Both the position numbers and the translations under genes were made by a program. The notes beneath the pieces were generated by a model. The model worked only from the letters and a program-made list of their open reading frames with translations. It made no database searches and was not told where the DNA came from. This document shows, piece after piece, positions 12,124 through 42,422 of a stretch of DNA of 56,592 nt (positions are counted from its first letter, which is position 1; each line of letters starts with the position of its first letter). Origin of the DNA: Candidatus Woesearchaeota archaeon (GTDB lineage Archaea > Nanobdellota > Nanobdellia > Pacearchaeales > GW2011-AR1); NCBI GenBank assembly GCA_964364885.1, contig CAYIOA010000001.1, positions 1 to 56,592 on the forward strand, written 5' to 3'.

Positions 12124-12162
12124 ATAAGAATCAATAAAAGCTTTTTGCTCATCTAAGCTGTC

Positions 12163-12869: not shown

Positions 12870-12919
12870 GATAAAAAAGACTAAGAAGACTTTATAAAGA
12901 TAACTCTCCTAAATAAAAA

Positions 12920-13537: not shown

Positions 13538-13544
13538 CAAAAAA

Positions 13545-14171: not shown

Positions 14172-14172
14172 T

Positions 14173-23416: not shown

Positions 23417-24178
23417 ATGAGCAGAATAATAACTATAACTTCGGGAAAAGGGGGGGTAGGAAAGACTACAACAGCAATTAATCTTGCCACAGCACTAAAT
23501 TTTTTTGGCAAAGATGTTATAATAGTTGACGCAAATCTTACAACGCCGAATGTTGGATTGCATCTAGGAGCGCCAATTGTCCCAATAAGCCTAAATCATG
23601 TTCTGTCAGGAAAAGCAAAAATCTCAGACGCAATATACGAGCACGAATCAGGAACAAAAATAATTCCAAGCTCTCTTTCAATTAACGAGCTAAGAAAAAT
23701 AAATCACAGTAAGCTGAAGGAATTAAGCAAAAAGCTGAAAAAAATGGCAGATATAATAATATTCGATTCTGCAGCAGGTCTGGGTGATGAGGCAATTGCA
23801 GCAATTGAATCAGGAGACGAATTAATTATAGTAACAAACCCTGAAATACCAGCAGTAACAGACGCTCTGAAAACCTCAAAGCTTATCGAGCAATTGGGAA
23901 AAAGCGTAAAAGGAGTTATTGTAACCAAAGTAAACGGCTCAAAGTCAGAAATGCCGGTGTCAAATATAAGAGACATGCTGGAACTTCCCATTTTAGGAGT
24001 AATCCCTGAAGATAAAAGAGTCCAGTCAGCTTTGGCAATGAAAGACGCGCTAATCCATGTTTATCCAAAATGCAAAGCATCCTTGGAATATAAAAGAATC
24101 GCAGCAAGACTAATAGGAAATAACAATTATAAAGAAAGAACAAATGGTATATTCGAAATGCTTTTAGGAAGATATTAG
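23417..24178 (+). CDS. minD: MinD/ParA-family ATPase
   Basis: Deviant Walker A SGKGGVGKTT and the DSAAGLGD region. Confidence 0.85.
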   Translation: MSRIITITSGKGGVGKTTTAINLATALNFFGKDVIIVDANLTTPNVGLHLGAPIVPISLNHVLSGKAKISDAIYEHESGTKIIPSSLSINELRKINHSKLKELSKKLKKMADIIIFDSAAGLGDEAIAAIESGDELIIVTNPEIPAVTDALKTSKLIEQLGKSVKGVIVTKVNGSKSEMPVSNIRDMLELPILGVIPEDKRVQSALAMKDALIHVYPKCKASLEYKRIAARLIGNNNYKERTNGIFEMLLGRY

Positions 24179-24511
24179 CTAAGATATCTTAGTTCCTTCT
24201 GCAATATCCCTCTCAGGCTCTATAATAACAACTTTGCTTTTGTCGTCAGAAACAGCTGCAAGAATCATCCCCTCGCTTTTAACACCTCTTAGAATAACAT
24301 GCTCTAAATTAAAGACAAAAATCGCTTTCCTGCCCTCAAGTTCCTCGCGCTCATAATGCTCTCTCAAACCAGCAACAATTGTCTTATTCTCGCCCTCTCC
24401 AAAACCAACCTTCAGCACATACAATTTACTCGCATTGGGGTGCTCCTCAACTCTCAAAATCCTGCCAACTCTCAAGTCAACTCCCTGAAAATCTTTTAAT
24501 GAAATTGCCAT
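24179..24511 (-). CDS. tRNA-binding domain protein (Trbp111/CsaA/EMAP-like OB fold)
   Basis: VDLRVGRILRVEEHPNASKLYVLKVGFGE...IVAGL...LRGVKSEGMILA. Confidence 0.8.
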   Translation of the reverse strand: MAISLKDFQGVDLRVGRILRVEEHPNASKLYVLKVGFGEGENKTIVAGLREHYEREELEGRKAIFVFNLEHVILRGVKSEGMILAAVSDDKSKVVIIEPERDIAEGTKIS

Positions 24512-24603: not shown

Positions 24604-25077
24604 TTAAGCTGTTATCTTTTCAGCTATTGTTCCAGTTGATGTTAGCACAACCGTACTACTTGGTTTGGTATAAGTTATAGTTATATCGCCCTTATAGTTG
24701 TTTCCAGTTGTTAAAGCGCTTGCGCAACCAACTGTAAACGCTTGAGCTGTTCCTACCGAAATACCAGTCGTTATTACACCAGTTGTGCAATCAATATCTG
24801 GAGCAGTGCCGTCAATATTTATGCCAGTAACAGTATAAACTTCCCCTCCATTATTCTGTAATTCAAGTATAGCACCGGAACTTCCAGCTCCTGTATCAGC
24901 CTGAACATTCCAAGCATTCATATAAAAAGGCGGAGTTACAACAGCAGATCCAGAAACATACTTGCCAGGACTAAATACTCCAAAATAAGCCAAAACTCCA
25001 ATAGCAATTACCGCCGCAAGTATAGCCCAGCCGTAAGTCATCAAGAACTCCATAGCTGCCTGTCCTTTCTTTTGCAT
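24604..25077 (-). CDS. Type IV pilin-like protein with a class III signal peptide
   Basis: MQKKG|QAAMEFLMTYGWAILAAVIAIGVLAYF (Q at +1, E at +5). I chose the ATG at 25077; the ORF track extends to 25104. Confidence 0.75.
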   Translation of the reverse strand: MQKKGQAAMEFLMTYGWAILAAVIAIGVLAYFGVFSPGKYVSGSAVVTPPFYMNAWNVQADTGAGSSGAILELQNNGGEVYTVTGINIDGTAPDIDCTTGVITTGISVGTAQAFTVGCASALTTGNNYKGDITITYTKPSSTVVLTSTGTIAEKITA

Positions 25078-25180
25078 TTTAAACCTCCTTTTATTAATAT
25101 GCAATATACTATAGAAAATACTATATAAATATTGTCATGCCGACAGAAAGCTTATAAAATACACCTCATATAAAAACAGA

Positions 25181-25744
25181 ATGAAAAAGAGCTTATTTTT
25201 AATACCCTTAATATTTCTGGCATTAACAATCATCATCATACTTTCTCTAGTCAATCTAAAAATATCGCCGATTGTCGGAGAAGCAATAAAAGAATCTAAA
25301 GACATCCAGGAAGACATAAACAACAACCCAGAAACAACAATAGAAAAAGAAAACATTGAAAAAGAGGATGTCAAAAATCCAAAACAAGAATCATTGAATA
25401 ACCTTGAGCCAGAATGTGAAGAACAGCAAATAGCATACGCTCTAAAAAATCTGAATAAGAACGAAACCTGCACAAAATTTCAAAACACCATCTGCGCAGA
25501 AAAAGAGATAATCTGCTCTGTAGAGCTCCATAACCTGGACGAGCAAGTAAAAGGATATTTTAAAATCAACCTGCTAGTGTTGAATAATCAAGGAACTCTG
25601 GAGACTATTCCTGAAGAATACACTTTAAATCCAAAGGAATATACAACATTTGAGGAAACAGTTACAATAAAAGGAGAAAACAATCTAAACAACATAAGCT
25701 GTTCTTTCTCAACTGAAACAATACCCAAAAAAAAGAGCTGTTAA
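25181..25744 (+). CDS. Secreted or membrane-anchored hypothetical protein with 7 Cys
   Basis: N-terminal signal or anchor LFLIPLIFLALTIIIILSLV. The antisense ORF 25135-25473 looks like a shadow ORF. Confidence 0.5.
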   Translation: MKKSLFLIPLIFLALTIIIILSLVNLKISPIVGEAIKESKDIQEDINNNPETTIEKENIEKEDVKNPKQESLNNLEPECEEQQIAYALKNLNKNETCTKFQNTICAEKEIICSVELHNLDEQVKGYFKINLLVLNNQGTLETIPEEYTLNPKEYTTFEETVTIKGENNLNNISCSFSTETIPKKKSC

Positions 25745-25746
25745 TA

Positions 25747-26670
25747 CTAAAGACAGTTAACCTGATAAACAGTTAAATGCTCGTTATCTAATTTAAACCA
25801 AGAAGGCAGTCCATTTGGAATAACATTACACGAGCTCGGATTAGCCGTCGAGAAATAAATATAATCAACAACAGATTTATCCTTGACATATACTCCCTGG
25901 GAGGATAATTTCTCCAAATTAACCAAAGATTCTATTCCATACAAGTTAGCTCCGACATTCCCCTGAAGTCTGTCAAGAAAGCTGGGAGCAGACGCAGAAG
26001 CAATATAATAAGAATTCGTCAAGTGCAAAAGCAAATTCTGAACATCACTCCCAGAAACAAAATTTGTATACAGGCTCTTTGTTATTTTATTTGTAATCAA
26101 TCCATTTGTGTTAACAACATACAAAGGATCCTCAAATCCCTCAACAGGTATCAACCCAACAATAGAAATGCTTTTATTCCAGCTTGCAAGTTTGTTCTTA
26201 TCCTCTACAAAAAAACTAGAGTTAAAAACCACCTTAACATGCCACGGATCATCCTGAGTAACCAAAATCGAAGGATCAAACAAGCTCGCGTTAGCATTTA
26301 TCTTTCTCGCTTTATTTTCCAAAGAACTTTTTATCTCGCTGAAAGTAGCTCCCGTCATCAAGCTCTGCGGTTGCCCGTATATAGTTCCATTATAAAAAGC
26401 CTCATCAAATGTAGCAGGAAAATTGCTTATAAAGGTTCCATTTTCAACAATTCTCTTCTCAAACAAGAATATAATTCTAAAGCCGGAGATATAAATCTGT
26501 CTAGATAAATCCTCTTCTGCAGAAAAAACAAAACTATCCAGGCTCTCAACTCTTTTCTGCACAACATTTCTTTCCTGGGCATTTGATACAAAAACAAGAG
26601 ATAAAAGAAAAAAAGTCAGCAATAAAATTGCCATGATAGTAAAAAACATTCCTTTCTTTTTCATGACCAT
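25747..26670 (-). CDS. Pilin-like (pseudopilin or minor pilin) protein, 307 aa
   Basis: KKKG|MFFTIMAILLLTFFLLSLVF N-terminus. 10-nt overlap with the upstream vWA gene. Confidence 0.55.
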   Translation of the reverse strand: MVMKKKGMFFTIMAILLLTFFLLSLVFVSNAQERNVVQKRVESLDSFVFSAEEDLSRQIYISGFRIIFLFEKRIVENGTFISNFPATFDEAFYNGTIYGQPQSLMTGATFSEIKSSLENKARKINANASLFDPSILVTQDDPWHVKVVFNSSFFVEDKNKLASWNKSISIVGLIPVEGFEDPLYVVNTNGLITNKITKSLYTNFVSGSDVQNLLLHLTNSYYIASASAPSFLDRLQGNVGANLYGIESLVNLEKLSSQGVYVKDKSVVDYIYFSTANPSSCNVIPNGLPSWFKLDNEHLTVYQVNCL

Positions 26671-29084
26671 GTTCTAACCTGAACCTCTGTTGACCATGTA
26701 AATGGAATTCCTGTAACTTCGCTGAAATCAATCTGCATATCCTGCTCTGAAAACTTAGTGTCTATCTTGTTATTAAGATTAAAATCAAGAATTCTCAATA
26801 AGTTGTAAACAGCTCCCTGCAAAGCATCATTTCCGTCATACTGCTGGATATTCTCCTGATAATAGCAGACATTCGCTCCAGAATATGCAGAAGGAATGGA
26901 AATTGTTAAATTAGAATCATCCTCAAATTGAATATTCCAGTTGCATCCCTCTGTAATAGAAGCTATAGAAGAATAGGCTAAAAAATCTTTTGCAATTGTA
27001 TAAATTATCTTGTTAGAAGATGTTCCAACGCTATAATTAGCCGGAGAAATTCCAATGCTGACATTAACTATATTGTTTCCTTGTATAAAAGAGTTAGGTA
27101 TGTTAATAGCATACGGATCTCCTAAACTGACATATTCACTTCCATAATCGCCAAGCTCATAAATAGGAATTTCATTAATCAAAACATTATTAGTCCACTG
27201 CGGCCCAGAATAAGAAATAACTTTTGTTTCAACAATTGTAGAATCATTAGAAACTGAAAAACTCCCTGAAGCAGCATTATTAAAAACTTTTTCTACACTC
27301 GTCAGCAGGCCAAATGGAGGAGGCTCCTTTACATAGCTGAATTCTATATAAGAATCAGGATAAAGTCTTGTATAAACATTTCCTATTGCCAAAATTGTCT
27401 GCTCTTTATATAAAGCAGAAAGAATATTATTCGCTATTTGTTTATAAATATCAACTAACTCGCTAACACTTCCAAAATAATAATCTCCTCCTCCACACGC
27501 AGCAATCTGCTGAAGAGTGTCCTCATCCGCCCCATTACCAAATCCTACAGCATGAACAGTGATATTATAATTATTATGTGCCTCGCACGCCGCCTGAATA
27601 GCATCATTCTTCGGATTTCCAGTATTCTGCTCATCACATTTTTTATTAGCTCCCCCGTCGCTCATAACAATCATTGACTTAAGTCTGTAAATGGAAGAGT
27701 TTGCAGCAAACTCGCTGGCAGCCCTATTAATCCCACAGCAAATGCAGGTAAACCCTCCGGCACTCCAGCTGTCTACTTCACTTTTCAAAGAAGCACTATT
27801 ATTCGAAAGAGAATGAAAATAATCTTGATAAGCTAGACTGCTGTAACCAACAAGCCCGACTCTGTTTCCAGAAACATTAAGAACAACATCTATTAAAATT
27901 TTATTTGACTCCTTAACAGCGATTAATTCAGCTCCCACCATGCTTCCCGAAAGGTCTGAAACAGAAATAACATCTGCATTAGTGCTCAGATTGCCGGCAT
28001 AAGAAACATTTTCCATTCCAAATCTAACTGGGATTGTGTTCTTGCTTAATGAATTATAATCAAGCAAAGAAGAAAGCTGCGCGTTATCAATCAAGAAACT
28101 CTGCTCGCCCTGAGTTGAATTCCTAAACACAGTTTTGTTTCCTATATTCAAAAAAGTATTATAAGAACTGTTGAAATGTAAATAAATCTCCAATGCGCTC
28201 AAATTTCCAGGAACATAAAATCCATCATAGACATTAATAAGTCCGCTAACACCGGGAAAAGAATACTTAGAAGCGTGCTCGTACTGCGCTCCGCTGATAT
28301 CATAATCAACCTTGATAAATCCGCCAGCGATATAAAGATTGTCTCCTTTTATATCAATAACATTCGCCCCGGAATTAAAATAACTAAGATTCCCGCCAAC
28401 CAGATTATATCTCACAGGAGTAAAATCAGAAGGAGATTCCTTATATCTCCCAGCATAATTTCCGTTTATATACAAATCAAAATCATTATTTATTGCTAAT
28501 TCAATTTCAGCAGAATTAATTGTTCCATTATAATCAACTCCCGCAGTTATATTGCCGTCTCCAGCATACCCCCCAAAGTAAAAATATTTGCTTCTCAGAT
28601 TGCTTGTTAAAAAAGCCCTTGCTGAAAATCCGCTGACACTTCCTCCTTCTTTAATCCCGGAAATAACCTGGCGCGCGGTGTCAATCCTTTCAGCTGTTTC
28701 AATCGGTGTAGAGTTTAAAGAAGAAATTAGCTTGTCGCCATACCAAATTCCAACATTCATATTCCCAAAATCCAGCTCAGAAAAAATAGAATCACTAAAA
28801 CTCCTTGAGAGGTTTATATCTGTAACATAAATCTCCCCGATCTGCTCCAGCAAAGAATTATTAGTGTTGTTTATCACGCCCTGGGCTACAAGAGACTGCA
28901 CATAGCTGTTGTTTATCTCGCTGACTTTCAAAGAGGAAAAAGTGTTTATAATATCGTAATGAACCTCGACATTTGGCTCGCTCTTAAAAAACACAGGATA
29001 AGAAATAATCAGCACAAGTAGTATAATTATTAGCGCTATCAAAGAATCTATGCTGAAAAAAACACCTCTTTTTTTTATTGCCAT
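26661..29084 (-). CDS. Large pilin-like protein with a von Willebrand factor A domain (TadG/PilY1-analogous tip adhesin candidate)
   Basis: KKRG|VFFSIDSLIALIIILLVL N-terminus. MIDAS-like DVISVSDLSGSM and a downstream MSDGGAN. 807 aa. Confidence 0.75.
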   Translation of the reverse strand: MAIKKRGVFFSIDSLIALIIILLVLIISYPVFFKSEPNVEVHYDIINTFSSLKVSEINNSYVQSLVAQGVINNTNNSLLEQIGEIYVTDINLSRSFSDSIFSELDFGNMNVGIWYGDKLISSLNSTPIETAERIDTARQVISGIKEGGSVSGFSARAFLTSNLRSKYFYFGGYAGDGNITAGVDYNGTINSAEIELAINNDFDLYINGNYAGRYKESPSDFTPVRYNLVGGNLSYFNSGANVIDIKGDNLYIAGGFIKVDYDISGAQYEHASKYSFPGVSGLINVYDGFYVPGNLSALEIYLHFNSSYNTFLNIGNKTVFRNSTQGEQSFLIDNAQLSSLLDYNSLSKNTIPVRFGMENVSYAGNLSTNADVISVSDLSGSMVGAELIAVKESNKILIDVVLNVSGNRVGLVGYSSLAYQDYFHSLSNNSASLKSEVDSWSAGGFTCICCGINRAASEFAANSSIYRLKSMIVMSDGGANKKCDEQNTGNPKNDAIQAACEAHNNYNITVHAVGFGNGADEDTLQQIAACGGGDYYFGSVSELVDIYKQIANNILSALYKEQTILAIGNVYTRLYPDSYIEFSYVKEPPPFGLLTSVEKVFNNAASGSFSVSNDSTIVETKVISYSGPQWTNNVLINEIPIYELGDYGSEYVSLGDPYAINIPNSFIQGNNIVNVSIGISPANYSVGTSSNKIIYTIAKDFLAYSSIASITEGCNWNIQFEDDSNLTISIPSAYSGANVCYYQENIQQYDGNDALQGAVYNLLRILDFNLNNKIDTKFSEQDMQIDFSEVTGIPFTWSTEVQVRTWS

Positions 29085-29093
29085 CTTATATAA

Positions 29094-29576
29094 CTATTCC
29101 CACAAATATATAGTTAATGTTATTGGAACATCTTTATATATGCTAACTCTCGTAATCCTTACTAAATTATCCGAATTTGGGTCCAGCAGTCCAATCCCTT
29201 CTATTCTAGACCCGCCAATAACAACCGATTCAGAAAGATTAACATAATAATTATGCCTGATGCCGAATAATGTTTTTGTTTTCCCATAATCAATTTGCGC
29301 AAGATTATAAAAACTCTCCAGTTTTGTTTCATTTATCTTCTTGTCAGTTAACAGTCCAATTTTGACAACACTGCTTTCATCCCAATTGCTAGGATATCCC
29401 TCCGAAAGCAGAGTATTTGAAACAATTTCTCCTTCATGGCTCAAAATACTAAGTTTCTCATCTGTCCCTGAAGAAGAATTCAAAGTGTAAATATAAAGCA
29501 AGAATGCAGCAGCTAAAAAAATAATAGCGGAAACAGCCAAATCAAATCCCCATGCCTGGGCTTTGCTCACTTTCAT
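29094..29576 (-). CDS. Pilin-like protein, 160 aa
   Basis: MKVSKA|QAWGFDLAVSAIIFLAAAFLLYIY N-terminus. 4-nt overlap with the KaiC-like gene. Confidence 0.55.
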   Translation of the reverse strand: MKVSKAQAWGFDLAVSAIIFLAAAFLLYIYTLNSSSGTDEKLSILSHEGEIVSNTLLSEGYPSNWDESSVVKIGLLTDKKINETKLESFYNLAQIDYGKTKTLFGIRHNYYVNLSESVVIGGSRIEGIGLLDPNSDNLVRITRVSIYKDVPITLTIYLWE

Positions 29577-30430
29577 TCTCGGTTGTTTTCCAGAAAATTA
29601 GAGGCTGGATTTTTGCTGACGACAATGCCTTTGCCGGAAATATCAAATGGATAGACTTTCTTTGAATGTTTAGTCCCTCTCATCTTCAAAACTTCTAGAA
29701 ACCTCCTCCTCTCTCCTCCGTTTCTCACAAAATACAAAACAACAATAGCATCTGCTTCAAATTCCAATGTCCTGGAGGAAATCTTGCTCTGGTCAGAAGA
29801 CTCAACCTCAAGTGTCAATAGCGAAGTGCAGTCCCAATCTCGAATCATGCCGAACAAAAACAAAGCGGCTTCTCTCTTAGAAAGTTCATCCTCAAACAGC
29901 AGCTCAAAAGAAGTGATGCTGTCAATAACCATTCTGCTTATCTTTTTTCCAACTACAATAGTCTCGATAAATCCCCCTCCTTCTTCAAGCATTGTTTTAA
30001 CCTTGCTGGGGGTGTATTCCAAAAAAGTAAATAGCCCTTTTTTTTCGTAACTCTCCAAGTCCCATCCAAAATCTTTCATATTTGCATAAAACTGCTCTTT
30101 CTTTTCTTCAAATGTAACAAATAAACATTTCTCTCCTTTCTCCATGCCTCGAAGCAGAAACTGCACAGCGAAAATAGTTTTCCCGCTTCCAGAACCTCCG
30201 ACTATTAAGCTGGTAGACTTTCTTTCAAAGCCTCCGCCAATAAGAGAGTCAAAATTAGGGATATACGTCGGAACTCTTGCCGTATTATTCTTCAGAGATT
30301 TCCTTTTCTCCTTTTTCTCCTCTTTAACTTTGGCTGAATCGCGCTTATCACTCTTTTCCGGCCTTTTCCCACTGTCTTTATTATTCAGTTTTAATCCCCT
30401 TTCCTCAACACTTCTTTTTAATTTCTTCAT
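29573..30430 (-). CDS. KaiC/RecA-superfamily ATPase (FlaH-like) with a Lys/Ser-rich N-terminal extension
   Basis: FDSLIGGGFERKSTSLIVGGSGSGKTIFAVQFL (Walker A) and VTFEE. About 55-aa basic N-terminal tail. Confidence 0.85.
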   Translation of the reverse strand: MKKLKRSVEERGLKLNNKDSGKRPEKSDKRDSAKVKEEKKEKRKSLKNNTARVPTYIPNFDSLIGGGFERKSTSLIVGGSGSGKTIFAVQFLLRGMEKGEKCLFVTFEEKKEQFYANMKDFGWDLESYEKKGLFTFLEYTPSKVKTMLEEGGGFIETIVVGKKISRMVIDSITSFELLFEDELSKREAALFLFGMIRDWDCTSLLTLEVESSDQSKISSRTLEFEADAIVVLYFVRNGGERRRFLEVLKMRGTKHSKKVYPFDISGKGIVVSKNPASNFLENNRE

Positions 30431-30477
30431 CGCCCTTTTTAAAACAAAATACTCTATAAAAACTTATCTAAGAAAAA

Positions 30478-30735
30478 CTATTTCCTGAGATAAAAAACGA
30501 TAAATAAAATAACCAAAATAAGAATAAACATAAAAAAAGCTATAAAGCTCATGAATATAAATTCCTGAGCTTTTAAACCAGTGTAATCCTGTCCCGGGCC
30601 CAGCATAATCTCTGGGGAGCTAAAAAGAATACTCACTAAAATAATAAGCAAAGCAAAAGACACAGCCAGCGTAAAAAAAGCGAGAATCTTCCTTTCTCTT
30701 CTCTTTCTAACACTTCTCTTTCTCTCCCTAATCAT
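30478..30735 (-). CDS. Small membrane protein with two TM helices
   Basis: 85-aa ORF and first gene of the minus-strand pilin operon. No homology recognised. Confidence 0.45.
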   Translation of the reverse strand: MIRERKRSVRKRRERKILAFFTLAVSFALLIILVSILFSSPEIMLGPGQDYTGLKAQEFIFMSFIAFFMFILILVILFIVFYLRK

Positions 30736-30823: not shown

Positions 30824-31207
30824 ATGAATCAAGATAAGATATTAAACAACAAGCTCATCAATGAACTAAAGAAAGATAAAAGAATCATAGCTGTGCTTTT
30901 ATTCGGCTCGCGTGCAAGAAACGAACAATATAGAGACACTGATATCTGCCTCGTTCTCGACAAAAAATACTCAAATTTAGAAATGTCAAAGATAGTATTA
31001 AAATATTCATCCGAATTGACAGCTAAGCACGATATCCAGGTATTCCAGCAGCTTCCTCTCTACATAAGGCAGAGAATTCTTAAAGAGGGAAAAATACTTT
31101 TATGTATTAACGAACCTGCTCTCTATGACATAGCCTTTGCAACAATAAAAGAATTTGAATATTATAAAAAAATATATTATACATATCTTGAGGCAATGCA
31201 AAAATGA
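30824..31207 (+). CDS. mntA: MNT-type nucleotidyltransferase antitoxin
   Basis: LFGSRARNEQYRDTDICLVLD (GS...DxD polymerase-beta-type NT motif). 4-nt overlap with the HepT gene. Confidence 0.8.
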   Translation: MNQDKILNNKLINELKKDKRIIAVLLFGSRARNEQYRDTDICLVLDKKYSNLEMSKIVLKYSSELTAKHDIQVFQQLPLYIRQRILKEGKILLCINEPALYDIAFATIKEFEYYKKIYYTYLEAMQK

Positions 31208-31638
31208 GAAAAAGCTCAATAGATAAGGAAAAAATTCTTTCTAAGATAGATGAATTAGATGGTTACTTGGAAGAGTTGGAGCAAATTAAGCCCGCTGACT
31301 TTGATGAATACAAAAATTCAATAGAAAAGAAAAGAGCTGTTGAAAGATTGCTACAAATAGCGATAGAAACCGTTATAGATATTTCTAACATCATAGTCTC
31401 TGGTCTTAAACTCGGAATACCATACGATGAAGATTCTCTTTTAGACAAACTGGAAGAAAAAAATGTCATTTCAAAAGAAATAAAAAATATTATGAAGGAA
31501 ATGAAGGGCTTTCGCAATGTTCTAGTCCACAAATACGCAGAAGTCAAAGATGAAATTGTATTCGAAAATCTCAATAAACTTGACGATTTTGATAAATTCA
31601 AGGAAGAAATTCTTTCATTTCTTAAGAAACATTCGTAA
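31204..31638 (+). CDS. hepT: HepT (DUF86/HEPN) toxin
   Basis: Rx4HxY motif in FRNVLVHKYAEV near the C-terminus. 144 aa. Confidence 0.85.
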   Translation: MRKSSIDKEKILSKIDELDGYLEELEQIKPADFDEYKNSIEKKRAVERLLQIAIETVIDISNIIVSGLKLGIPYDEDSLLDKLEEKNVISKEIKNIMKEMKGFRNVLVHKYAEVKDEIVFENLNKLDDFDKFKEEILSFLKKHS

Positions 31639-31642: not shown

Positions 31643-34600
31643 CTAAACCTTCTCTTCATTTCTCCGTCGCGCAAGAATCCAACTAGCAACAATAATTAAA
31701 ACAACACCAATAGAAATAAATATCACAGTCAGTATTATAGTTACTAATTTATTTTGCTCTTCATCTTGCACAGAAGCAGAAACCCTGCCTCTATTTCCCT
31801 TAGACGTGCTTTTAAAAACCTCTGAGCCAGGACCACTTGCCAAACTCTCTGAACTGCCCACTAAACCTTCTGAACTACTCCCTGAACCTAAATTGCTATT
31901 TGAAGAGTCACCGCTATTCAAAGAACTAATACCACCTAAACTAAGAATGCCTGCCGAACATAGCTCCATAACATGAAGGTTGCCAGAAAATTCGGCATCC
32001 CACGAGTTCCATACAATACGGCTGCCTTGCACGCCGATATTAGAATTAAAATTAGGATATCCTTTGTCTACTTCTAATACTCTGCTGTCATCACTCGTGC
32101 CAGCTATGCCGTCAGCACCCAAGTAATAAAGAAGAATACGTCCATATTCCTGCCAGACAATATATGTTCCGGATATTTCAGGCTCAACGCCAAAAGACAA
32201 ACCACCATACATTCCAGAATCATCTCCTCCGTTATTCTCAAACAATCCATTTGCTCCAAGTCCATATAAAAATATCTCTGGGAGGTATTTCAAATTTCGC
32301 CAGTCTTCCCATACAATCACATTTCCGTCAATAGAAGGATTCTCCTGTCCCTGCGGATTATTCGTTATTCTATCTTCCTGTCCACTAACTATATCCCTCA
32401 TGTATATCTCCCAATTGCCATCTCTCCCATCCTGCCAAACAACTTTAGTATCATAAATATCAGGATTCCATTGGCTTTGCTGATTAATCACAAATGGAAC
32501 TTCTGTATTGGTAGAAAAATCATAAAGATAAATATCCCAATTGCCGTTTCTTTTATCTGCCCAAACAATACTATCGTCATAAATAGACAAATGATTCTTA
32601 TCACTGCCAGTATTAGTTAATTGTGTTGGACCTAAGTCGTCATTTCCATTCTCAAATAATCCATTTACTCCATTATCATAATAAAACACTTCGTAACTCG
32701 GTCCTACAGGACCAAGCCAGACAATTAAATCATCATAAAAGACAAGCTCCCCAACATCAACATATCCGCTAACATCAAACTCATAATGAATATCATCAAA
32801 AGACTTATACAATCCATCAAGTCCTAATTCATGTAAAACTATTTTCTCCTGATTGCTCAAATGATTGTATTCTTTCCATAGAATCTTCGTGTCATACACA
32901 TCACCAAGAGTTCTACTACGCTCAATCCATATAACTGCTTTCTTACTTCCATCATTTGTGTTATGATAAGACCTATCAAGGAACACATCAATCCCGTGCA
33001 CATTCTGCCAAACACCTTGCTGAAGAAGAACAATATCAACAATTGCTGGGCTTGTTACAGAAACACTTGTTACTTTTACACTAGCACTGCTTCCTGTTAT
33101 AACGTCTAAGAGTTCAAAAGTATGCTCCTCTCCGTTATACAAAAACTTATGCGAGGACTTTGGAGAGCTTCCTCCGACTATCAAATCAAATGTCTTCGCG
33201 CCTGATAACTTAATCTCACTCCCGATTTGTCCAAACTGGCAAGCCTGTGAATTCGGCCCCCCGTAGCAATAATTTGAATAACTCTCTCCTCTGTCAATCA
33301 CAGCTACACCAGCATTGGCACAATTCCACCAAGGTAAATACGGTCCGGTATCACCTGATTCATGCACATAAACGCTCCCAGGATAAATACCCTTGCACGC
33401 ATCAAGCGCAGTTTGATAGCACATAAAAATAGGAAACTCGTTGCCGTCACTTTTAATATCAACTTCTTTATACACGTTCATAGAATTGTCAAACTGATTT
33501 CCAGGAAGATTATCATATATCACGCCTAATAAACTGCCCGTGCATGCATTCCCTGTGCATCCATAAGGACATTGATATAATGTTGCGCCAGGAGCCACAC
33601 CAAAGCACGACTTCTCATTAAGCAAAGTATTATCAGCAACCCACTGGCTATTAGTGTCATAACTGCAAATATCACTTGCCCATCCCTCCCTAATCAATAT
33701 AACCTCATTTCCAGAATTACCTGCTCCAATAAACTTAATACCCGAAACATAAACATTGTAATTCCAATCAATAGGATCAAATAATGTAAAAGAGCCAAGC
33801 CAAACTGTTTGAGTAACGCCGTTCATAGTCAAGATTGCCTCATCATCTGAGATAACTTGTAAGCTATATCCTTGATAAACTCCCTCCTGCAAAACCTCCC
33901 CTCTTCCTCCTTTAAAAGAAACAGAGAAAGCCACATAATTATTTCCTCCGTCATAATCCCGGCATATCTGCGCTTCAATAGAAACACATGAATGCAGCAA
34001 AAGCACTGCACTTAACGATGTTGCTGTTTCATCAGCTTCAAGCAAATAAACTTCAATACCGCCTGAAAACACTTTCGCACCATTTTCCGGAATATCACGC
34101 ACTTCCGACCGACCAATATTATCAGTCATTTTTATCGTCGCTGATGTATCAGACGCAGAAACCAGCTCAATCTCGTACAAATCAACACTATCAACTAAAA
34201 TCTGTCTGACAAAATCCTTGTTTGTATCCAAACTAATTTTCACCGCCCCATTAAGAACAAGTATATCATCATCTGAATCTGCTCCGATACTATAATCACT
34301 ATCTAAAAGAGTAAGAAGCGTGCCATAATCAAAAGCAGAAGTGGAAAGCGGCAGTGCTGGAGTAAAAGCAGTCTTATAAGTATAAAACGGTTCTCCAACA
34401 GGGTCTGTAGAAATTTCCAAAATAGTTTCTGGCTCCATGCCAAAAACTGGAGATTTATAAGTCATATCATAACTCCCATAACTCTTAAATGTTATTGACT
34501 GTCCGTAATTATATGAATTATTGCCAGAAGAATCTCTTACAACACCCGAAGCAAGTAAATAAGGTAATTCGCGCTCTCCTATAATAATAGAACCAGAAAC

Positions 34601-37600
34601 ACCAACATTCAGCACAGCGCGGATAATTCCCCCAGTCGTATCTTCATCAGCATCTTCAACTTGAACAATCAACCCAGAAATAATATCGCTCTGTCCTTCA
34701 TGAACAATTCTTGTATCGATCAATCCAGTTTGACTACGCACTTCAATCGTTGCAGTTGTATCACTAGCAGAAACAAGAGTTAAAGTATATTCCACTCCGC
34801 TAATAAAAACTTTTCTCACTGAATTGCCAAAAGTATTATCAAGATAAACAGTTTCAAGTGGAGATTTCTCTCTATGAAAAGGAACTAAAAATGAAAAGAA
34901 TTCGGACTGCTCTCCTCCCTCAACTGTCAAGCGACCATATTGCTGTTTTAATGGAACATTTATGTTTACATTCGATGCCCAAGAATAATTCGTTAGTGTT
35001 ACCGAGCTTCCAAACGAAGTTATTTGTTTATAATAATATCTGTTACTTGATGAAGATGCAAGAGCTTCCCCGCCAGAAGAAAATACAGGCGTTGGAGTTA
35101 AACCTGATAATGTATAAACAGAAGGAACACAAATTGCATTTCCCTCCTCTTCACCAAACACAGGAGGCTCAAGAATAAGAACAGCAGGACCGTGCGCGCT
35201 GTCAAATATACACGGCTGTCCATAAACATAAACACGGTCAAGCAATCCTACGTTTCCAGAACTCCAGCGCACTCCATAATCAATCTTCCCTACAAAAGTG
35301 CTCGTTGAAGCTCCGGCATTATATATAAAAGATGTTCCTTGTAAATAATCATCCACAACAAATCTCCCAGGCACTTGATAAATAATATTTTTATCTACGC
35401 GAGTCTCACTAAGAAACGCGACCTTGGCTCCGCGTTCTGAAGTAAGTATTGGAAATAATCTCATTTCTGGTTGTGCATCGTGAGCTTCAACCCACCCAGA
35501 CTGTGCAAATCCTAAATTGCCCAGATTAATTAAAACACTGCCCTCAACTAACAGCTGTGCGCTAAAGCTCTGTGTCAAGCTATCAAATGATGATTGTATA
35601 ACTCTTATTCTCAAACCATTTACAGCTTCTGTTGTTCCTAAAGCAATGTTGCGCGCCATCGTCGTGGTTGAATCACTTACTCGAACAATAGCACTCGTAG
35701 AACTCGCGCTTTCAATCTTAATAGTATAAATCTGCCCGTCTAAAGTTACATCCCAAGATAGAGAGCCATCTCCGACACCTGCATCCTTTCCATAAGCTAA
35801 TGAATATGTCTCTGCCCCAATAACCAAACTCCCAACTCCCTGTGAGCTTATCGTTGCAGAATAAACATTTCCAGTCAATACATCTCTGAACTCAACAATA
35901 TCACTATTAAATCCAGAATCTATATCCGCCACTCTTTCAACCTCAAACAACCATCCCTGCTCATTCTTTAAACTTGATAGCAAAATTAATTCCTCCTCCC
36001 ACGCACGCTCTCCTTCATACACATGAATAGGGTCATAATTTCTTGCTAAATCAGCCCCGATAATCTTCTGATTCTCATCCTTGCGTGGAGAAGCATATAA
36101 AATCGCCTGATATGGTGTATCAAACACAATACTATCAAAAGACATTTCGCTTGATTGCCCGTCGCCGTATACCTGAATACTATCACTGCCAAAATACCAC
36201 GGAGGAGAAAATGTAAAGTGCAGCGACGCACTGCCTTTTTCAAATACTCTGTCAGTATATGTTTGAGACTTAGTTAAATAAGATGAGGTGTTATCTGCCG
36301 CAGCGTACGAAACACTCATTGAATCCATGCCTGCTCCAGGTATTCCCTGGTTGTCAACAGAAGTTCCGCGCACAAGATTACCCTGAATACCTTTTTGCAC
36401 AACAGAATCATCGTCAAATTTCAGCATAGAACGCACAGAAGAAACACATAACGATTGCTCTACAAAACACTGAGACGAACACCCGTCTCCGCCCCGCGCC
36501 CCGCATTGTGAGCCATCAGTGCAAACTCCATTTAAAGTGCAGTCACTTCCATCCCCACACTGTCGTCCATCATCACAATCTTCTATGCCCTCAATAAGAC
36601 TATCTCCACATAAACTACAAGAGCGTATATCAACAGAATCCTGCGTAACACCAACAATCTCCATATCCTTCCCTAAATAATGAATCTTCAGAGGATTTTG
36701 CGCACTTGTCTGTCTCAAATCAAACGCTCCATTAAAAGCATAATATAAATCTGTAGAAATAGGCTGAACATCAACTATAGCTCCGACAATCGCCAAGGGC
36801 AAAGTTACTCCTGTTCCAACTTCAGGCGAAATTTTTCCAAAAATTAGCTCCTCTGAAGCAGAGTCACTTATACCATTAAAGCTTAAAAATTCTGAAAATC
36901 CTGCAATAGACAAACCAAATCCAAACAAATTATCAGATAACGGCTTTCCAACTGGCAATTGGTGTTGAGTTTGCGCGCCATTCAAAGTCAAAAGAACATT
37001 CGCCAAAACCTGGTCTCCAGGAATATCTATCAAAACTCTATCCTGAAAACTATTAGTCGCCTGATTCCCGATTTTAATTCCGTATGTTGTCATAACGCCA
37101 GAAGTCGTCCCTTTCTGAACCCTTCCCTGATTAGCAACCTCTGCTCCGCTGATCTCTATTTCCGCAGCCTCTGGAATTTGCGGCTGATTGCCAAGTCCTG
37201 CAATCTTTCCGTTTAAACTATCAAATAAAAATTTCATACTGATAATCTCTTGCGTTAACAACTCCGGAGTATCTCCTTTCGTTTCAATAAGCAAATCAAT
37301 AATATTATTGCTCCCTGAATCTCTCACCAGCTTTATGACTGCATTATTTCCAGTTGTTTGTAAATGCTCAACATGGAAAATAGAAACTGGCTGTTGTGTG
37401 CTATCAGGAACAGAAACTTCACCCAAGTATTGAAGAACTCCTAAAATTTCTCCGTAAATATCTGCTTTTAAGATACTCCCGACAATTTTTGTCTCAAGTA
37501 AAATCGCGCTTGTTCTTTGTCCGTTATAGCCTTGATTAATATCCCATCCCGCGTCATCAATAACAAATATCTCTCCATTGGATTTATCTTTAATCTCAAT

Positions 37601-39544
37601 TAATTCGCGCTCCTCAGGAAGCACCAACAAATTGCCGGAGCCGACTGTCTGGCCATTACAAGAACTATCAACTGTAAAATGATATAAGTTTGAATACTGG
37701 GAAAGAATTCCGCTCGGAATAGTCCACCTGATTAACTCTTCCTTCGGCCCAACTTTCATCTGAACCCTTCCGTTTGTGCCGAATGGTGTGACTATCTGTC
37801 CGAAATTATCAAACATTCTTACATTTAAATCAACCCCCGTACATGAGCCATACTTAGTCATGCTCAATATTACTGACTTCCCTTCAGATGAAACAATTAA
37901 AGGATTAACATCACTAGAATCAATGCCGTTGCTCCAATAAGCAGTTTGAAACCCGCAAATACCGCCCCTATCAAAAATCTCATTCTCACAAAAAGTTGGA
38001 GATAGCTCATCAACCCTCTCACAATTTGACTCAATGCTAAAGCAGTCGCACAACAAGCCAATTCCGCCAGCTGGCTCGCGCAGTTTCGGATTCGCATCAG
38101 AGCATTCATCAAGTCTTTGTATAAAAACATCATCCGCACTTTGTCTTCTATCCAAGTTCAAATCACACAACTCTCCCCTGCCAATGGTAGAATCATAACA
38201 ACCAGGATTAATAGAAGCATCTACCGGTCCATTTTTATTATAATTGCAATATGAATAAATATAATCACAATTCATACCGCACCCCAATGCGCTGTTAAGT
38301 CCGAATGTAGACTCGGCAGGTCCTGCGTTCGGAAAATCAGAGCATGTTAATCCTTGGGAGAATACATCATCATTAGGATTCTCGCTGGGCTCATATAAAC
38401 CAGTTGCAAAATTTTTATTTATAGAAAATCCATTTCCATTTAAACCCTTGTCGCAAATTTCCATGCCGTCTATAATTCCATTCCCGCACTGGCTTGTTCC
38501 TCCATTATCCTGGCACTGGCACTGCACACATTCCCAGCCCTGTCCCATCAAAGAACACTGTGTTGCATCATTCAAGCATCCATCAAAACAAATTCCCCGC
38601 GAACACACCTGATTAAAGGCACAGTCATTATGCCAATAGCACTCCCCGCAATACCCGTCATAACTGCATACTTCATTAAAATTACACTGAGAATCAGAAG
38701 TGCATCTGTCAGGAATATCACAAACTCCCCCTGCGCCAGCTATATCTGAAGAGGAGACAAGAATAGTTGTTCTGCTCTGAATATTTCCCGGTCTAAGATT
38801 ACCCTGAACCAAAGACTTGCCAATACTAACCGGCGCGTAATCGCTAGAAGGAACACTCAATCCATGCAAACACGCAGACGCATAATCATCAGGAAAATCA
38901 AGACACTCCCCTATCTGCAAACTATTACTAATAACATTGGATATTCCGATAAACGGTCCTTGAGGATCAGCATCAGAATCAACAATTTGCGTCGGCCCAA
39001 CTTGGTCTAAATTTCCAAGCTCCCATATCCATTCTGGGTTATTAGGGTCCTGCCCTATGAAAGGATCTCTATCCCTATAAGTTCTTATCGTGCACTGAGC
39101 ACCGCCAGATGAAGCAACACACGCCCCGTCCACACATCCATTATCGCACTTAATCCGCGTCTCCATAATTACCCCTTGATCACACCACTGCTCATGAACA
39201 TAATCAATATAACTTCCGTCTCTATTTCTTACCTGAGAGCAATAATCTTCATCGCTCTCCCCATACTTCACATACGTAGTAGACTTCGTATAAATTCCAT
39301 TATTTCCATCAGGATCAACACATCCGTAACCATCATCAATCACTCCAGAGCCAACACACTGAGCAAAATTCAGATAATCATTATAATCAATATCTCCGTC
39401 GTTATCAAAATCAGATGAAGTTCCAGTCTGTCCAAGAGCGCTATTAATAATAAATATCCCTGCCAGCAAGACAAAAATTCCAAATAAAAGTCCAACTCTC
39501 CAAATTTTTCTCTTCTCTATTTTTATCTCCTTTTTTCTCTTCAT
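31643..39544 (-). CDS. Giant (~2,633 aa) multidomain cell-surface protein
   Basis: Uninterrupted 7.9-kb ORF with a Sec-type signal or anchor (WRVGLLFGIFVLLAGIFIINSALG). Dockerin-like DFDNDGDIDYNDY. Cys-rich repeats CGNGIIDGMEICD and CGDSLIEGIEDCDDG. Four SASDT-type modules (e.g. YTLTLVSASDTTATIEV). C-terminal PD40-like repeats (NGNWDIYLYD, DGNWEIYMRD). Ser/Gly linker and C-terminal TM anchor followed by RRRNEEKV. I prefer the ATG at 39544; the ORF-track start at 39565 is a TTG. Confidence 0.9.
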   Translation of the reverse strand: MKRKKEIKIEKRKIWRVGLLFGIFVLLAGIFIINSALGQTGTSSDFDNDGDIDYNDYLNFAQCVGSGVIDDGYGCVDPDGNNGIYTKSTTYVKYGESDEDYCSQVRNRDGSYIDYVHEQWCDQGVIMETRIKCDNGCVDGACVASSGGAQCTIRTYRDRDPFIGQDPNNPEWIWELGNLDQVGPTQIVDSDADPQGPFIGISNVISNSLQIGECLDFPDDYASACLHGLSVPSSDYAPVSIGKSLVQGNLRPGNIQSRTTILVSSSDIAGAGGVCDIPDRCTSDSQCNFNEVCSYDGYCGECYWHNDCAFNQVCSRGICFDGCLNDATQCSLMGQGWECVQCQCQDNGGTSQCGNGIIDGMEICDKGLNGNGFSINKNFATGLYEPSENPNDDVFSQGLTCSDFPNAGPAESTFGLNSALGCGMNCDYIYSYCNYNKNGPVDASINPGCYDSTIGRGELCDLNLDRRQSADDVFIQRLDECSDANPKLREPAGGIGLLCDCFSIESNCERVDELSPTFCENEIFDRGGICGFQTAYWSNGIDSSDVNPLIVSSEGKSVILSMTKYGSCTGVDLNVRMFDNFGQIVTPFGTNGRVQMKVGPKEELIRWTIPSGILSQYSNLYHFTVDSSCNGQTVGSGNLLVLPEERELIEIKDKSNGEIFVIDDAGWDINQGYNGQRTSAILLETKIVGSILKADIYGEILGVLQYLGEVSVPDSTQQPVSIFHVEHLQTTGNNAVIKLVRDSGSNNIIDLLIETKGDTPELLTQEIISMKFLFDSLNGKIAGLGNQPQIPEAAEIEISGAEVANQGRVQKGTTSGVMTTYGIKIGNQATNSFQDRVLIDIPGDQVLANVLLTLNGAQTQHQLPVGKPLSDNLFGFGLSIAGFSEFLSFNGISDSASEELIFGKISPEVGTGVTLPLAIVGAIVDVQPISTDLYYAFNGAFDLRQTSAQNPLKIHYLGKDMEIVGVTQDSVDIRSCSLCGDSLIEGIEDCDDGRQCGDGSDCTLNGVCTDGSQCGARGGDGCSSQCFVEQSLCVSSVRSMLKFDDDSVVQKGIQGNLVRGTSVDNQGIPGAGMDSMSVSYAAADNTSSYLTKSQTYTDRVFEKGSASLHFTFSPPWYFGSDSIQVYGDGQSSEMSFDSIVFDTPYQAILYASPRKDENQKIIGADLARNYDPIHVYEGERAWEEELILLSSLKNEQGWLFEVERVADIDSGFNSDIVEFRDVLTGNVYSATISSQGVGSLVIGAETYSLAYGKDAGVGDGSLSWDVTLDGQIYTIKIESASSTSAIVRVSDSTTTMARNIALGTTEAVNGLRIRVIQSSFDSLTQSFSAQLLVEGSVLINLGNLGFAQSGWVEAHDAQPEMRLFPILTSERGAKVAFLSETRVDKNIIYQVPGRFVVDDYLQGTSFIYNAGASTSTFVGKIDYGVRWSSGNVGLLDRVYVYGQPCIFDSAHGPAVLILEPPVFGEEEGNAICVPSVYTLSGLTPTPVFSSGGEALASSSSNRYYYKQITSFGSSVTLTNYSWASNVNINVPLKQQYGRLTVEGGEQSEFFSFLVPFHREKSPLETVYLDNTFGNSVRKVFISGVEYTLTLVSASDTTATIEVRSQTGLIDTRIVHEGQSDIISGLIVQVEDADEDTTGGIIRAVLNVGVSGSIIIGERELPYLLASGVVRDSSGNNSYNYGQSITFKSYGSYDMTYKSPVFGMEPETILEISTDPVGEPFYTYKTAFTPALPLSTSAFDYGTLLTLLDSDYSIGADSDDDILVLNGAVKISLDTNKDFVRQILVDSVDLYEIELVSASDTSATIKMTDNIGRSEVRDIPENGAKVFSGGIEVYLLEADETATSLSAVLLLHSCVSIEAQICRDYDGGNNYVAFSVSFKGGRGEVLQEGVYQGYSLQVISDDEAILTMNGVTQTVWLGSFTLFDPIDWNYNVYVSGIKFIGAGNSGNEVILIREGWASDICSYDTNSQWVADNTLLNEKSCFGVAPGATLYQCPYGCTGNACTGSLLGVIYDNLPGNQFDNSMNVYKEVDIKSDGNEFPIFMCYQTALDACKGIYPGSVYVHESGDTGPYLPWWNCANAGVAVIDRGESYSNYCYGGPNSQACQFGQIGSEIKLSGAKTFDLIVGGSSPKSSHKFLYNGEEHTFELLDVITGSSASVKVTSVSVTSPAIVDIVLLQQGVWQNVHGIDVFLDRSYHNTNDGSKKAVIWIERSRTLGDVYDTKILWKEYNHLSNQEKIVLHELGLDGLYKSFDDIHYEFDVSGYVDVGELVFYDDLIVWLGPVGPSYEVFYYDNGVNGLFENGNDDLGPTQLTNTGSDKNHLSIYDDSIVWADKRNGNWDIYLYDFSTNTEVPFVINQQSQWNPDIYDTKVVWQDGRDGNWEIYMRDIVSGQEDRITNNPQGQENPSIDGNVIVWEDWRNLKYLPEIFLYGLGANGLFENNGGDDSGMYGGLSFGVEPEISGTYIVWQEYGRILLYYLGADGIAGTSDDSRVLEVDKGYPNFNSNIGVQGSRIVWNSWDAEFSGNLHVMELCSAGILSLGGISSLNSGDSSNSNLGSGSSSEGLVGSSESLASGPGSEVFKSTSKGNRGRVSASVQDEEQNKLVTIILTVIFISIGVVLIIVASWILARRRNEEKV

Positions 39545-39548
39545 TTTT

Positions 39549-41393: not shown

Positions 41394-41408
41394 TTTATTC
41401 TTCTTAAA

Positions 41409-41515
41409 ATCAAAAAGTCCTTGTATTTTGCCGAAGACTGAAGTCCGCAGTTTGTTTGGATTCATCAAAGATTCTCCTCGCACTTCAGTGCGTGTTTTGT
41501 CAGGAGTCTTGGCAT
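41409..41515 (+). repeat. Modular nested-hairpin repeat, copy C (partly degenerate), between or within the platform genes
   Basis: AATCAAAAAGTCCTTGTATTTTGCCGAAGACTGAAGTCCGCAGTTTGTTTGGATTCATCAAAG...CGCAC-TTCA-GTGCG...CTTGGCATTAAA. Both termini match copies A and D. Confidence 0.7.
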
Positions 41516-41535
41516 TAAATTTTTTCAGCATCATT

Positions 41536-42417: not shown

Positions 42418-42422
42418 CTCAG

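Follow-up and report, generated by a model that had tools for sequence, protein, structure and literature searches.

The stretch of DNA analysed here (the window) comprises 56,592 nt of contig CAYIOA010000001.1, assembly GCA_964364885.1, from Candidatus Woesearchaeota archaeon, and contains a cluster of genes predicted to encode a type IV pilus, in which several pilin-like proteins, one of them bearing a vWA domain, are encoded together with a KaiC-like ATPase. The window is archaeal in gene content (MCM, aRF1, TrmB, FtsZ and several aminoacyl-tRNA synthetases), and its exact proteins are present at NCBI in a Nanoarchaeota metagenome-assembled genome under locus tags AABX73_015xx-016xx. The Pfam scan covered 41 open reading frames (ORFs) of the window, and the smaller ORFs were inspected by eye.

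A preliminary description of this DNA had singled out a run of five minus-strand ORFs, at 30478-30735, 29573-30430, 29094-29576, 26661-29084 and 25747-26670 (85, 285, 160, 807 and 307 residues, respectively), and a separate pilin-type gene at 24604-25077 (157 residues, counted from the ATG). These ORFs are as described, and so is their spacing, with a 4-nt overlap (29573-29576), a 9-nt gap (29085-29093) and a 10-nt overlap (26661-26670). The motif GGSGSGKT is present in the 285-residue protein and SDLSGSM occupies residues 376-382 of the 807-residue protein, while the hidden Markov model (HMM) search that had been proposed returned KaiC (PF06745, E = 3e-62) and VWA (PF00092, E = 9e-13) from Pfam. 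The features of this part of the window are as follows, a slash separating the putative leader from position +1.

30478-30735, minus strand: 85-residue membrane ORF with two hydrophobic stretches, no conserved member of the system
29573-30430, minus strand: KaiC-like ATPase, a single domain behind a K/R-rich N-terminal tail of variable length; candidate partner of the motor
29094-29576, minus strand: p160, minor pilin-like, KK[AG]/QAWGFDL followed by a hydrophobic helix
26661-29084, minus strand: vWA807, pilin-anchored vWA adhesin; candidate tip subunit
25747-26670, minus strand: p307, minor pilin-like, a long N-terminal helix carrying a head domain of novel type
25181-25744, plus strand: p187, secreted or membrane protein with six Cys, lying between p307 and pil157 but on the other strand
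24604-25077, minus strand: pil157, candidate major pilin, MQKKG/QAAMEFLMTYGWAILAAVIAIGVLAYFGVF

As a unit the run proved to be incomplete: although the flagged genes are real, genes for an assembly ATPase, two platform proteins and two further pilin-like proteins lie 10-16 kb upstream (40482-45455). From their sequences and gene order, the flagged genes probably make up the half of a type IV pilus cluster that provides the filament, and the cluster is conserved in hundreds of ultra-small DPANN archaea (Pacearchaeota, Woesearchaeota and Nanoarchaeota).

Class III-like N-termini and the candidate pilins

In the families of pil157, p160, vWA807 and p307, the N-terminus consists of [KR][GA] and then a stretch of some 22 uncharged residues, in which positions +1 to +6 form conserved motifs. 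The family patterns are KK[AG]/QAWGFDL for p160, KK[GA]/vFFSxDALIAL for vWA807 (where the Asp at +6 is invariant), NKKG/iFFT for p307 and x-K-K-G/QAAMEFLMTYGWAILAAIIAIGVLAYFGVF for pil157. We screened the whole window for N-termini of this kind, defined as [KR][GA] followed by 22 residues of which at least 13 were strongly hydrophobic, none was Lys or Arg and at most one was acidic. The screen returned only the four flagged proteins, the small proteins p136 and p130 and the membrane protein p181, all three encoded beside the motor genes (see below), and one internal start in the second platform protein, T2SSF2, which we read as a false positive. Judged by sequence, six proteins of the cluster have class III (prepilin-like) N-termini, namely pil157, p136, p130, p160, vWA807 and p307.

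Substrates of the Methanococcus maripaludis peptidase EppA have leaders of 5-13 residues that end in Gly, with Gln at +1 and Glu at +5 (PMC3875500). Both pil157 (MQKKG/QAAME, with a five-residue leader) and p136 (MKKKKG/QISTE) have this signature; p160 has the Gln at +1 without the Glu at +5, and vWA807 and p307 have neither. Across 55 species, residues +1 to +25 of pil157 are 89% identical, compared with 36% for the remainder of the protein, which is the pattern expected of a polymerizing major pilin, and the family is represented by 3714 clusters at 50% identity (E ≤ 1e-3). The gene is preceded by a GGAGG Shine–Dalgarno sequence 7 nt upstream of the ATG (25077) and by a TATA-like box (such boxes were noted by eye) and has a T-rich 3′ end; its own Shine–Dalgarno sequence and T-rich tract indicate an independent unit. 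Some relatives of pil157 (P0305, P0308, P0320 and P0311) are modular pilins of 450-950 residues in which Laminin_G_3 lectin domains or GLUG repeats follow the pilin module, so that DPANN archaea appear to functionalize major-type pilins too.

In the p160, vWA807 and p307 families, the hydrophobic segment is conserved about as well as the mature part of the protein. The AlphaFold2 model of p307 (pLDDT 92.6) shows a continuous helix of 74 residues (residues 2-75) carrying an alpha/beta head, a lollipop shape that is incompatible with a cleaved Sec signal. Comparison of p160 with the first 85 residues of vWA807 using hhalign gave a weak match (probability 63%, E = 7e-5), which suggests that the N-terminus of vWA807 is a p160-like pilin module; the comparison of p160 with p307 was negative, and the alignment of p307 with vWA807 was limited to the signal-peptide motif. 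No Pfam or NCBIfam family was found at threshold for p160, p307, pil157, p187, p181 or p300 (the last encoded in the insert described below), and profile searches of the PDB with the p160 and p307 alignments and with pil157 gave nothing meaningful.

It could be argued that these N-termini are ordinary Sec signals or anchors, and that p160, vWA807 and p307 are surface proteins unrelated to a filament and connected with the cluster by synteny only. Pilin HMMs all score below threshold and no peptidase gene is linked to the cluster, which would fit such a reading, and since DPANN genomes are small and syntenic the linkage could be inherited, a tRNA-binding protein, MinD and ValRS also being conserved neighbours. 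We nevertheless regard it as very improbable. In every family, [KR][GA] stands immediately before the hydrophobic stretch and is accompanied by a conserved Gln at +1 or Asp at +6; the hydrophobic segment is conserved as much as the mature part or more, unlike the h-regions of cleaved Sec signals, and in p307 it is modelled as running on into a single helix up to residue 75. Moreover, p160, vWA807 and p307 move with p136 and p130 as one module relative to the motor genes, and outside the pilus cluster the window has no further instance of the class III-like motif. The suggestion that the N-termini are class III-like rather than Sec-like is therefore upheld by the conservation of [KR][GA] directly before the hydrophobic stretch.

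The putative adhesin vWA807

The VWA domain recognized by Pfam spans residues 371-537 of vWA807 (PF00092, 49 bits against a cut-off of 23.8). Its MIDAS (metal-ion-dependent adhesion site) comprises D377-x-S379-x-S381, T446 and D476, of which, in an alignment of 23 sequences, S379 is invariant and the others are at least 90% conserved. The AlphaFold2 model (pLDDT 78) begins with a membrane helix (residues 12-34) and a helical/beta N-terminal module (41-142), continues with a beta-sandwich (163-332), the vWA domain (370-556) and further beta domains (572-778), and ends with a low-confidence linker (779-797) and a terminal strand (798-806). The region of this last strand ranks with the best conserved of the family; its residues P794, R804 and W806 are invariant.

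Searched with Foldseek, the model matched many vWA structures with a probability of 1.0, and the matches were to extracellular adhesive domains, including those of ITIH1, ANTXR2/CMG2, TEM8, vWF A3, the Mfa5 pilus tip, LapA and the minor pilin PilB; for PilB of Streptococcus sanguinis (7ba2, 7b7p) the E-value was 6e-9. The conserved MIDAS and a fold that matches extracellular adhesins, PilB among them, support the parallel with TadG and PilY1 drawn in the preliminary description. The protein contains 22 N-X-S/T sequons, compared with 12.4 expected from its composition and with 0-3 in the cytoplasmic proteins of the window, and it has a K/R-rich leader and conserved cysteines, all of which indicate that it is extracellular. 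An intracellular role, as an ArnB-like regulator or a partner of MoxR, was considered and rejected, since the protein has an N-terminal membrane helix with a positive-inside leader, is enriched in sequons and contains conserved cysteines, and since neither FHA nor MoxR genes are present.

More than 559 database relatives of vWA807 align at about 50% identity over the full length. Those with names are all from Pacearchaeota, Woesearchaeota or Nanoarchaeota, the best name being ‘VWA domain-containing protein’, and when each GTDB species was represented by a single genome, a relative was detected in 269 genomes. A 5.2-kb contig labelled ‘Elusimicrobia bacterium’ (L075, MNXB01000016.1) carries an archaeal p160-vWA-p307 arrangement and is probably a binning error. 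The longer relatives, of about 1000-1500 residues, have Laminin_G_3, a sialidase-type carbohydrate-binding module or DUF4215 inserted within the vWA domain (P0005, P0011, P0016 and P0051, and the genes at 12468-15986 of locus L036 and 9992-14485 of locus L079); the point of insertion of these modules lies between the positions of residues 462 and 463 of the window protein. A Cys-rich loop that follows the first MIDAS motif in most relatives is missing from vWA807. Locus L036 has two tandem vWA paralogues, and another locus encodes a version of 1497 residues. Variability of this kind is expected of an adhesin.

Gene order, the motor module and the KaiC-like ATPase

The remaining genes of the cluster lie upstream of the flagged run.

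44054-44599, minus strand: p181, membrane protein directly upstream of T2SSE, with two hydrophobic segments
42423-44051, minus strand: T2SSE, secretion/assembly ATPase of the T2SSE/FlaI/CpaF superfamily (PF00437, E = 9e-37)
41536-42417, minus strand: T2SSF1, platform protein 1, a single T2SSF domain, TadB/TadC-like (PF00482, E = 3e-13)
40482-41534, minus strand: T2SSF2, platform protein 2, a single T2SSF domain (PF00482, E = 4e-15)
44650-45060, plus strand: p136, pilin-like, with the EppA-type signal MKKKKG/QISTEY (Gln at +1, Glu at +5, Tyr at +6)
45063-45455, plus strand: p130, minor pilin-like, MDKKA/QTGIEL..., found by the screen for class III-like N-termini

The core of a type IV filament system, an ATPase together with a T2SSF platform, is thus present, with the platform in two genes and on the same strand as the flagged run. 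The best PDB matches of the ATPase are GspE of Archaeoglobus fulgidus (2oap, E = 7e-71), FlaI and CpaF. The cluster does not belong to the archaella: the platform is encoded by two genes rather than by a single arlJ, the ATPase reaches 274 bits on the NCBIfam FlaI model against a cut-off of 550, and, as the preliminary description had remarked, archaellum-specific genes are lacking, no archaellins, ArlF/G, ArlCDE or ArlX being found by Pfam among the 41 ORFs scanned. The cluster also contains no PilT-like gene. In p181, a [KR]G-hydrophobic start is followed by a conserved C-terminal domain (TDLDxLY...W) that gave only weak, scattered helix-turn-helix matches; searches of Pfam, and of the PDB with the alignment, returned no significant match, and the protein is possibly a motor accessory or a membrane-tethered regulator. 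The genes for p136 and p130 are transcribed divergently from p181. Their Pfam matches are under the cut-off: p136 is best matched by PF04021 (Class_IIIsignal, E = 0.033) and p130 weakly by DUF7266 (E = 9e-4).

In order to examine synteny, six-frame ORFs from 80 loci, each from a different GTDB species, were searched with the window proteins; 34 of these loci, flanked by 8 kb or more on either side, are referred to as fully covered. The consensus order is p136-p130, then p181-T2SSE-T2SSF1-T2SSF2-KaiC-p160-vWA807-p307-(p187, on the opposite strand)-pil157. The gene immediately upstream of the vWA gene is a p160 homologue in 73 of 77 loci, and the one immediately downstream is a p307 homologue in 71 of 74, so that the arrangement, which the preliminary description had proposed to check across DPANN genomes, is not a matter of chance. 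Within the fully covered loci, we found KaiC in 30, T2SSE in 31, both T2SSF genes in 31, p181 in 29, always immediately before T2SSE, and pil157 in 31, the last being duplicated in some loci; p187 homologues are present in 10 of the 34, in the same position and orientation. The p136-p130 pair, matched in 69 of 84 loci, is always found as a pair, beside either p181 or p160. Two layouts can be distinguished. The collinear layout, to which 20 loci and this window belong, has all genes behind p181 on a single strand. In the divergent layout, with 33 loci, the series p181-T2SSE-T2SSF1-T2SSF2-KaiC stands opposite p136-p130-p160-vWA807-p307. Downstream of pil157, at 23417-24511, a MinD/ParA-type ATPase (plus strand) and a tRNA-binding-domain protein (minus strand) recur in many loci; ValRS, NAC and EndoIII are also syntenic, and the MinD and tRNA-binding neighbours may represent inherited gene order and not a link in function.

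The KaiC-like ATPase belongs to the KaiC family, scoring 210 bits on PF06745 (cut-off 26.6). Its Walker A motif (GGSGSGKT), FEE catalytic pair, Walker B motif (vIDS) and KMRGT.HS are conserved in 51 homologues, whose K/R-rich N-terminal tails vary from about 10 to about 200 residues. Unlike cyanobacterial KaiC it has a single domain, and there is no KaiB in the cluster. On NCBIfam models it reached 158 bits for KaiC_arch_3, 64 for ArlH (cut-off 215) and 25-34 for RadA and RadB; in the PDB, the CI and CII domains of KaiC were matched with E = 1e-65, compared with E = 4.5e-6 for FlaH (4yds), and it is nearer to PH0186, PH0284 and SSO2452 than to FlaH. The original label of KaiC/FlaH-like thus holds for the KaiC family, but in sequence the protein is far nearer to KaiC domains than to FlaH/ArlH. 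What it shares with ArlH (FlaH) is that both are single-domain proteins of RecA/KaiC fold encoded beside secretion ATPase and platform genes; it differs, apart from the low score, in retaining the catalytic EE pair and in its variable K/R-rich tail. The possibility that the gene is a RadA/RadB repair paralogue, raised in the preliminary description, was rejected, given the RadA and RadB scores, the synteny with pilus genes in 30 of 34 loci and the presence of a separate Rad51-type gene in a related genome. On these comparisons, the ATPase is neither an ArlH orthologue nor a repair recombinase.

The KaiC gene adjoins T2SSF2 in 42 of 51 cases (in 23 of them T2SSF2 only), p160 only in four and neither gene in five. 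Its position at T2SSF2 is kept in both layouts, which makes it part of the motor module; that it stands next to p160 in this window results from the collinear layout. The coupling of KaiC to the pilus that had been proposed is therefore supported by synteny, but the tie is to the motor rather than to the pilins. The description of KaiC as an unusual regulator was an overstatement, KaiC-family ATPases at archaeal type IV pilus loci having already been reported (Makarova et al. 2016, PMC4858521); in Euryarchaeota they are co-transcribed with VirB11/TadC operons, and the pilus-linked members were classed as ‘potential regulatory or modulating proteins’ (PMC4858521).

That classification leads to a different view of the KaiC-like ATPase, in which it would be a co-transcribed signalling hub that controls the expression or timing of the pilus genes, or other processes, and no part of the motor. 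The closer similarity to bona fide KaiC and to PH0186, PH0284 and SSO2452 than to FlaH/ArlH fits this view, as do the retained catalytic glutamates, the absence of the gene from four of the 34 fully covered loci and the five cases in which it adjoins neither T2SSF2 nor p160. We think it rather unlikely, because the gene is kept behind the second platform gene in both layouts (42 of 51), which mirrors the arlH-arlI-arlJ linkage, and because neither a KaiB-like protein nor any other output partner is encoded in the cluster.

The cluster of this genome is interrupted, between the platform genes and KaiC, by an insert that consists of the 85-residue ORF and the following genes.

39549-40451, minus strand: p300, lineage-specific protein of 300 residues with an N-terminal membrane anchor; no Pfam or NCBIfam match
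31643-39565, minus strand: 2640-residue surface protein with an N-terminal signal, a C-terminal membrane anchor and 65 Cys; no Pfam family
30824-31638, plus strand: MNT/HEPN toxin–antitoxin pair (nucleotidyltransferase, PF18765, E = 3e-15; HepT-like, PF01934, E = 6e-29)

No locus among the 80 has a homologue of the 300-, 2640- or 85-residue protein, nor does the MNT/HEPN pair recur there, and the 90%-identity cluster of the 85-residue ORF has two members; this ORF, which had been counted in the run, is lineage-specific and can be removed from it. The 2640-residue protein, which adjoins p300 behind the second platform gene, has dockerin-like DxDxDG motifs, and with three N-X-S/T sequons compared with 23 expected it is strongly depleted in them, the opposite of vWA807. 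Two more nucleotidyltransferase-domain genes are present in the window, at 45867-46448 and 52471-53091 (both plus strand). Beyond the cluster, a 1226-residue protein (46457-50137, minus strand), in which an M12/reprolysin-like metallopeptidase domain is joined to a right-handed beta-helix of NosD-like type, is a possible secreted effector. A 554-residue eukaryotic-type Ser/Thr protein kinase (3756-5420, minus strand; Pkinase, E = 2e-35) is unlinked to the cluster and could matter if regulation of the pilus uses phosphorylation.

A candidate adhesive pilus

The reading that best accommodates these results, and which we consider likely, is that the cluster encodes an adhesive pilus of Epd/Tad-like type, whose tip adhesin resembles CpaL/TadG and whose motor has an ArlH-like partner. 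The proposal of an adhesive type IV pilus in the preliminary description is supported by the class III-like N-termini, the MIDAS, the vWA fold, the synteny of KaiC and the lack of archaellum genes. A peptidase encoded elsewhere would remove the short K/R-rich leaders after Gly or Ala, and the motor formed by the ATPase and platform proteins would use the hydrophobic N-terminal helix of pil157, which is nearly invariant, to polymerize this protein into a fibre. The translationally coupled p160, vWA807 and p307, probably with p136 and p130, would form an initiation complex that comes to lie at the pilus tip, where vWA807, anchored by its own N-terminal pilin module, would bind a ligand on a surface or host cell through its MIDAS-bearing vWA domain. 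Indirect support for such a tip complex comes from the 4-nt and 10-nt overlaps and from the conserved terminal strand (798-806) behind its low-confidence linker. ArlH binds ArlI and autophosphorylates, reportedly without hydrolysing ATP (PMC8978795); the KaiC-like ATPase may similarly work in the cytoplasm with the T2SSE hexamer, and could gate or modulate assembly through ATP binding, hydrolysis or autophosphorylation.

Several points weigh against this interpretation. No prepilin peptidase was found in the window, where all unannotated ORFs were checked by number of transmembrane segments and for a GxGD motif, or within 10 kb in the two loci with precomputed Pfam labels (L001 and L003), and cleavage of the leaders is accordingly presumed. 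None of the six class III-like proteins matches a pilin family of Pfam or NCBIfam at threshold, the best match being PF04021 (E = 0.03-0.11; 0.11 for pil157), and a Foldseek search with the confident p307 model returned no PDB fold below E = 0.1, which leaves its head domain without assignment to a pilin fold. The KaiC-like ATPase is far from ArlH and keeps its catalytic glutamates, and may act differently. The tip location, the minor-pilin complex and the contact between KaiC and the ATPase are drawn by analogy, and no filament has been reported for these organisms in the literature searched.

The class III-like proteins might instead be displayed close to the membrane. Archaeal proteins with class III signals may be surface-displayed binders rather than subunits of a fibre (bioRxiv 10.64898/2026.04.22.720090), and the cluster might accordingly encode a short pseudopilus or ‘bindosome’-like platform that presents vWA807 and the other class III proteins, or a secretion machinery like that of the type II system. 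The T2SSE ATPase does score 139 bits, under the cut-off, on the model for BasE of the bindosome, and the minor pilin-like genes are many compared with one candidate major pilin. This arrangement seems unlikely to us, since pil157 behaves as a major pilin in its near-invariant helix, very large family, stand-alone gene with a strong Shine–Dalgarno sequence and duplications, and since FlaI-type proteins and those of the A. fulgidus GspE type give the ATPase higher scores than BasE does. A bolder extension of the adhesive pilus, which we hold to be quite improbable, is a retractile ‘grappling hook’ common to all DPANN archaea, in which KaiC would be an obligate third motor subunit that, by its cycle of ATP hydrolysis or autophosphorylation, switches the single T2SSE ATPase between extension and retraction, and vWA807 would be locked at the tip and bind a host ligand. 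By analogy with CpaL, the C-terminal strand of vWA807 would then insert into the sheet of its own N-terminal pilin module, and, if this were true, licensing of the tip would predate the archaeal-to-bacterial transfer behind Tad pili.

The closest architectural parallel to the adhesive pilus proposed here is the Tad pilus of Caulobacter, in which CpaL/TadG unites a minor-pilin module and a split, MIDAS-bearing vWA domain in one protein (PMC12607857; bioRxiv 10.64898/2026.02.14.705861). Like CpaL/TadG and its partners CpaJ and CpaK (TadE/TadF), vWA807 is a large minor-pilin-like protein that combines an N-terminal pilin module, a vWA domain with a full MIDAS and beta-rich domains (PMC12607857; bioRxiv 10.64898/2026.02.14.705861); it also has a conserved extreme C-terminal strand, small minor pilins encoded alongside and, in its relatives, modules inserted within the vWA domain. 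In common with bacterial Tad systems, the platform is encoded by two genes and the major pilin has a short leader and G/xxxxE. The system described here is, however, archaeal, lacks a secretin such as RcpA, TadZ and TadD and contains a KaiC-like ATPase, and its partner proteins p160, p307, p136 and p130 belong to no described family. No cluster protein matches the TadE, Tad (N-terminal region of TadG) or Flp families of Pfam at E ≤ 0.1, which places the cluster outside the Tad family and limits the resemblance to architecture. The Epd or ‘System 1’ type is regarded as the origin of Tad pili.

The cluster likewise shares with the Epd pilus of M. maripaludis and type IV filament ‘System 1’ (clade 1, Makarova et al. 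2016) two platform genes and many proteins with class III signals, among them large adhesin-like ones, as well as pilins whose leader ends in Gly, with Gln at +1 and Glu at +5, and System 1 has been reported in some DPANN archaea (PMC3875500; PMC4858521; bioRxiv 10.64898/2026.04.22.720090). The differences are that the present cluster has no EppA-type peptidase and has the KaiC-like gene within the motor module, that its candidate major pilin is a protein of 157 residues with a globular domain, compared with about 74 residues in Methanococcus, and that its adhesin carries a vWA domain and not DUF2341. A split platform is also known from subsystems 4A (some DPANN) and 4B, and is not exclusive to System 1; on sequence grounds, the split platform, short leaders and G/Q...E pattern fit the Epd/‘System 1’ type, with the two platform genes shared by subsystem 4A. 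A vWA/MIDAS module on, or attached to, tip minor pilins is found in PilB of S. sanguinis and in PilY1/PilC (PMC8179133). Compared with PilB, vWA807 is twice as long, has an additional beta-sandwich and C-terminal domains and comes from another domain of life, so that the vWA fold alone is shared.

Each of these elements has a precedent, in archaeal type IV pili with two-gene platforms, in KaiC-family neighbours, in bacterial pilin-fused vWA adhesins and in the ‘dark-matter pilins’ known from type IV pilus islands of DPANN archaea (PMC6393860). On the specific, widely conserved DPANN cluster the literature searched offered general statements only, and it gave no prior description of that cluster, of an archaeal pilin-anchored vWA adhesin or of the p160 and p307 families.

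A life in attachment to host cells is assumed for DPANN archaea, and the molecules that make the contact are largely unknown. The cluster, present in at least 269 species-level genomes with its products annotated only as ‘hypothetical’ or ‘VWA domain-containing’, would provide a candidate attachment organelle with a fibre subunit (pil157), defined minor pilins and a MIDAS-bearing tip adhesin, and would extend the pilin-fused vWA tip-adhesin design of CpaL/TadG and PilB to the archaea. It would also offer a second and simpler system, besides the archaellum, for the effect of a KaiC-like partner on the motor of a type IV filament, and the lectin modules that are inserted in the adhesin and vary between lineages may track host range.

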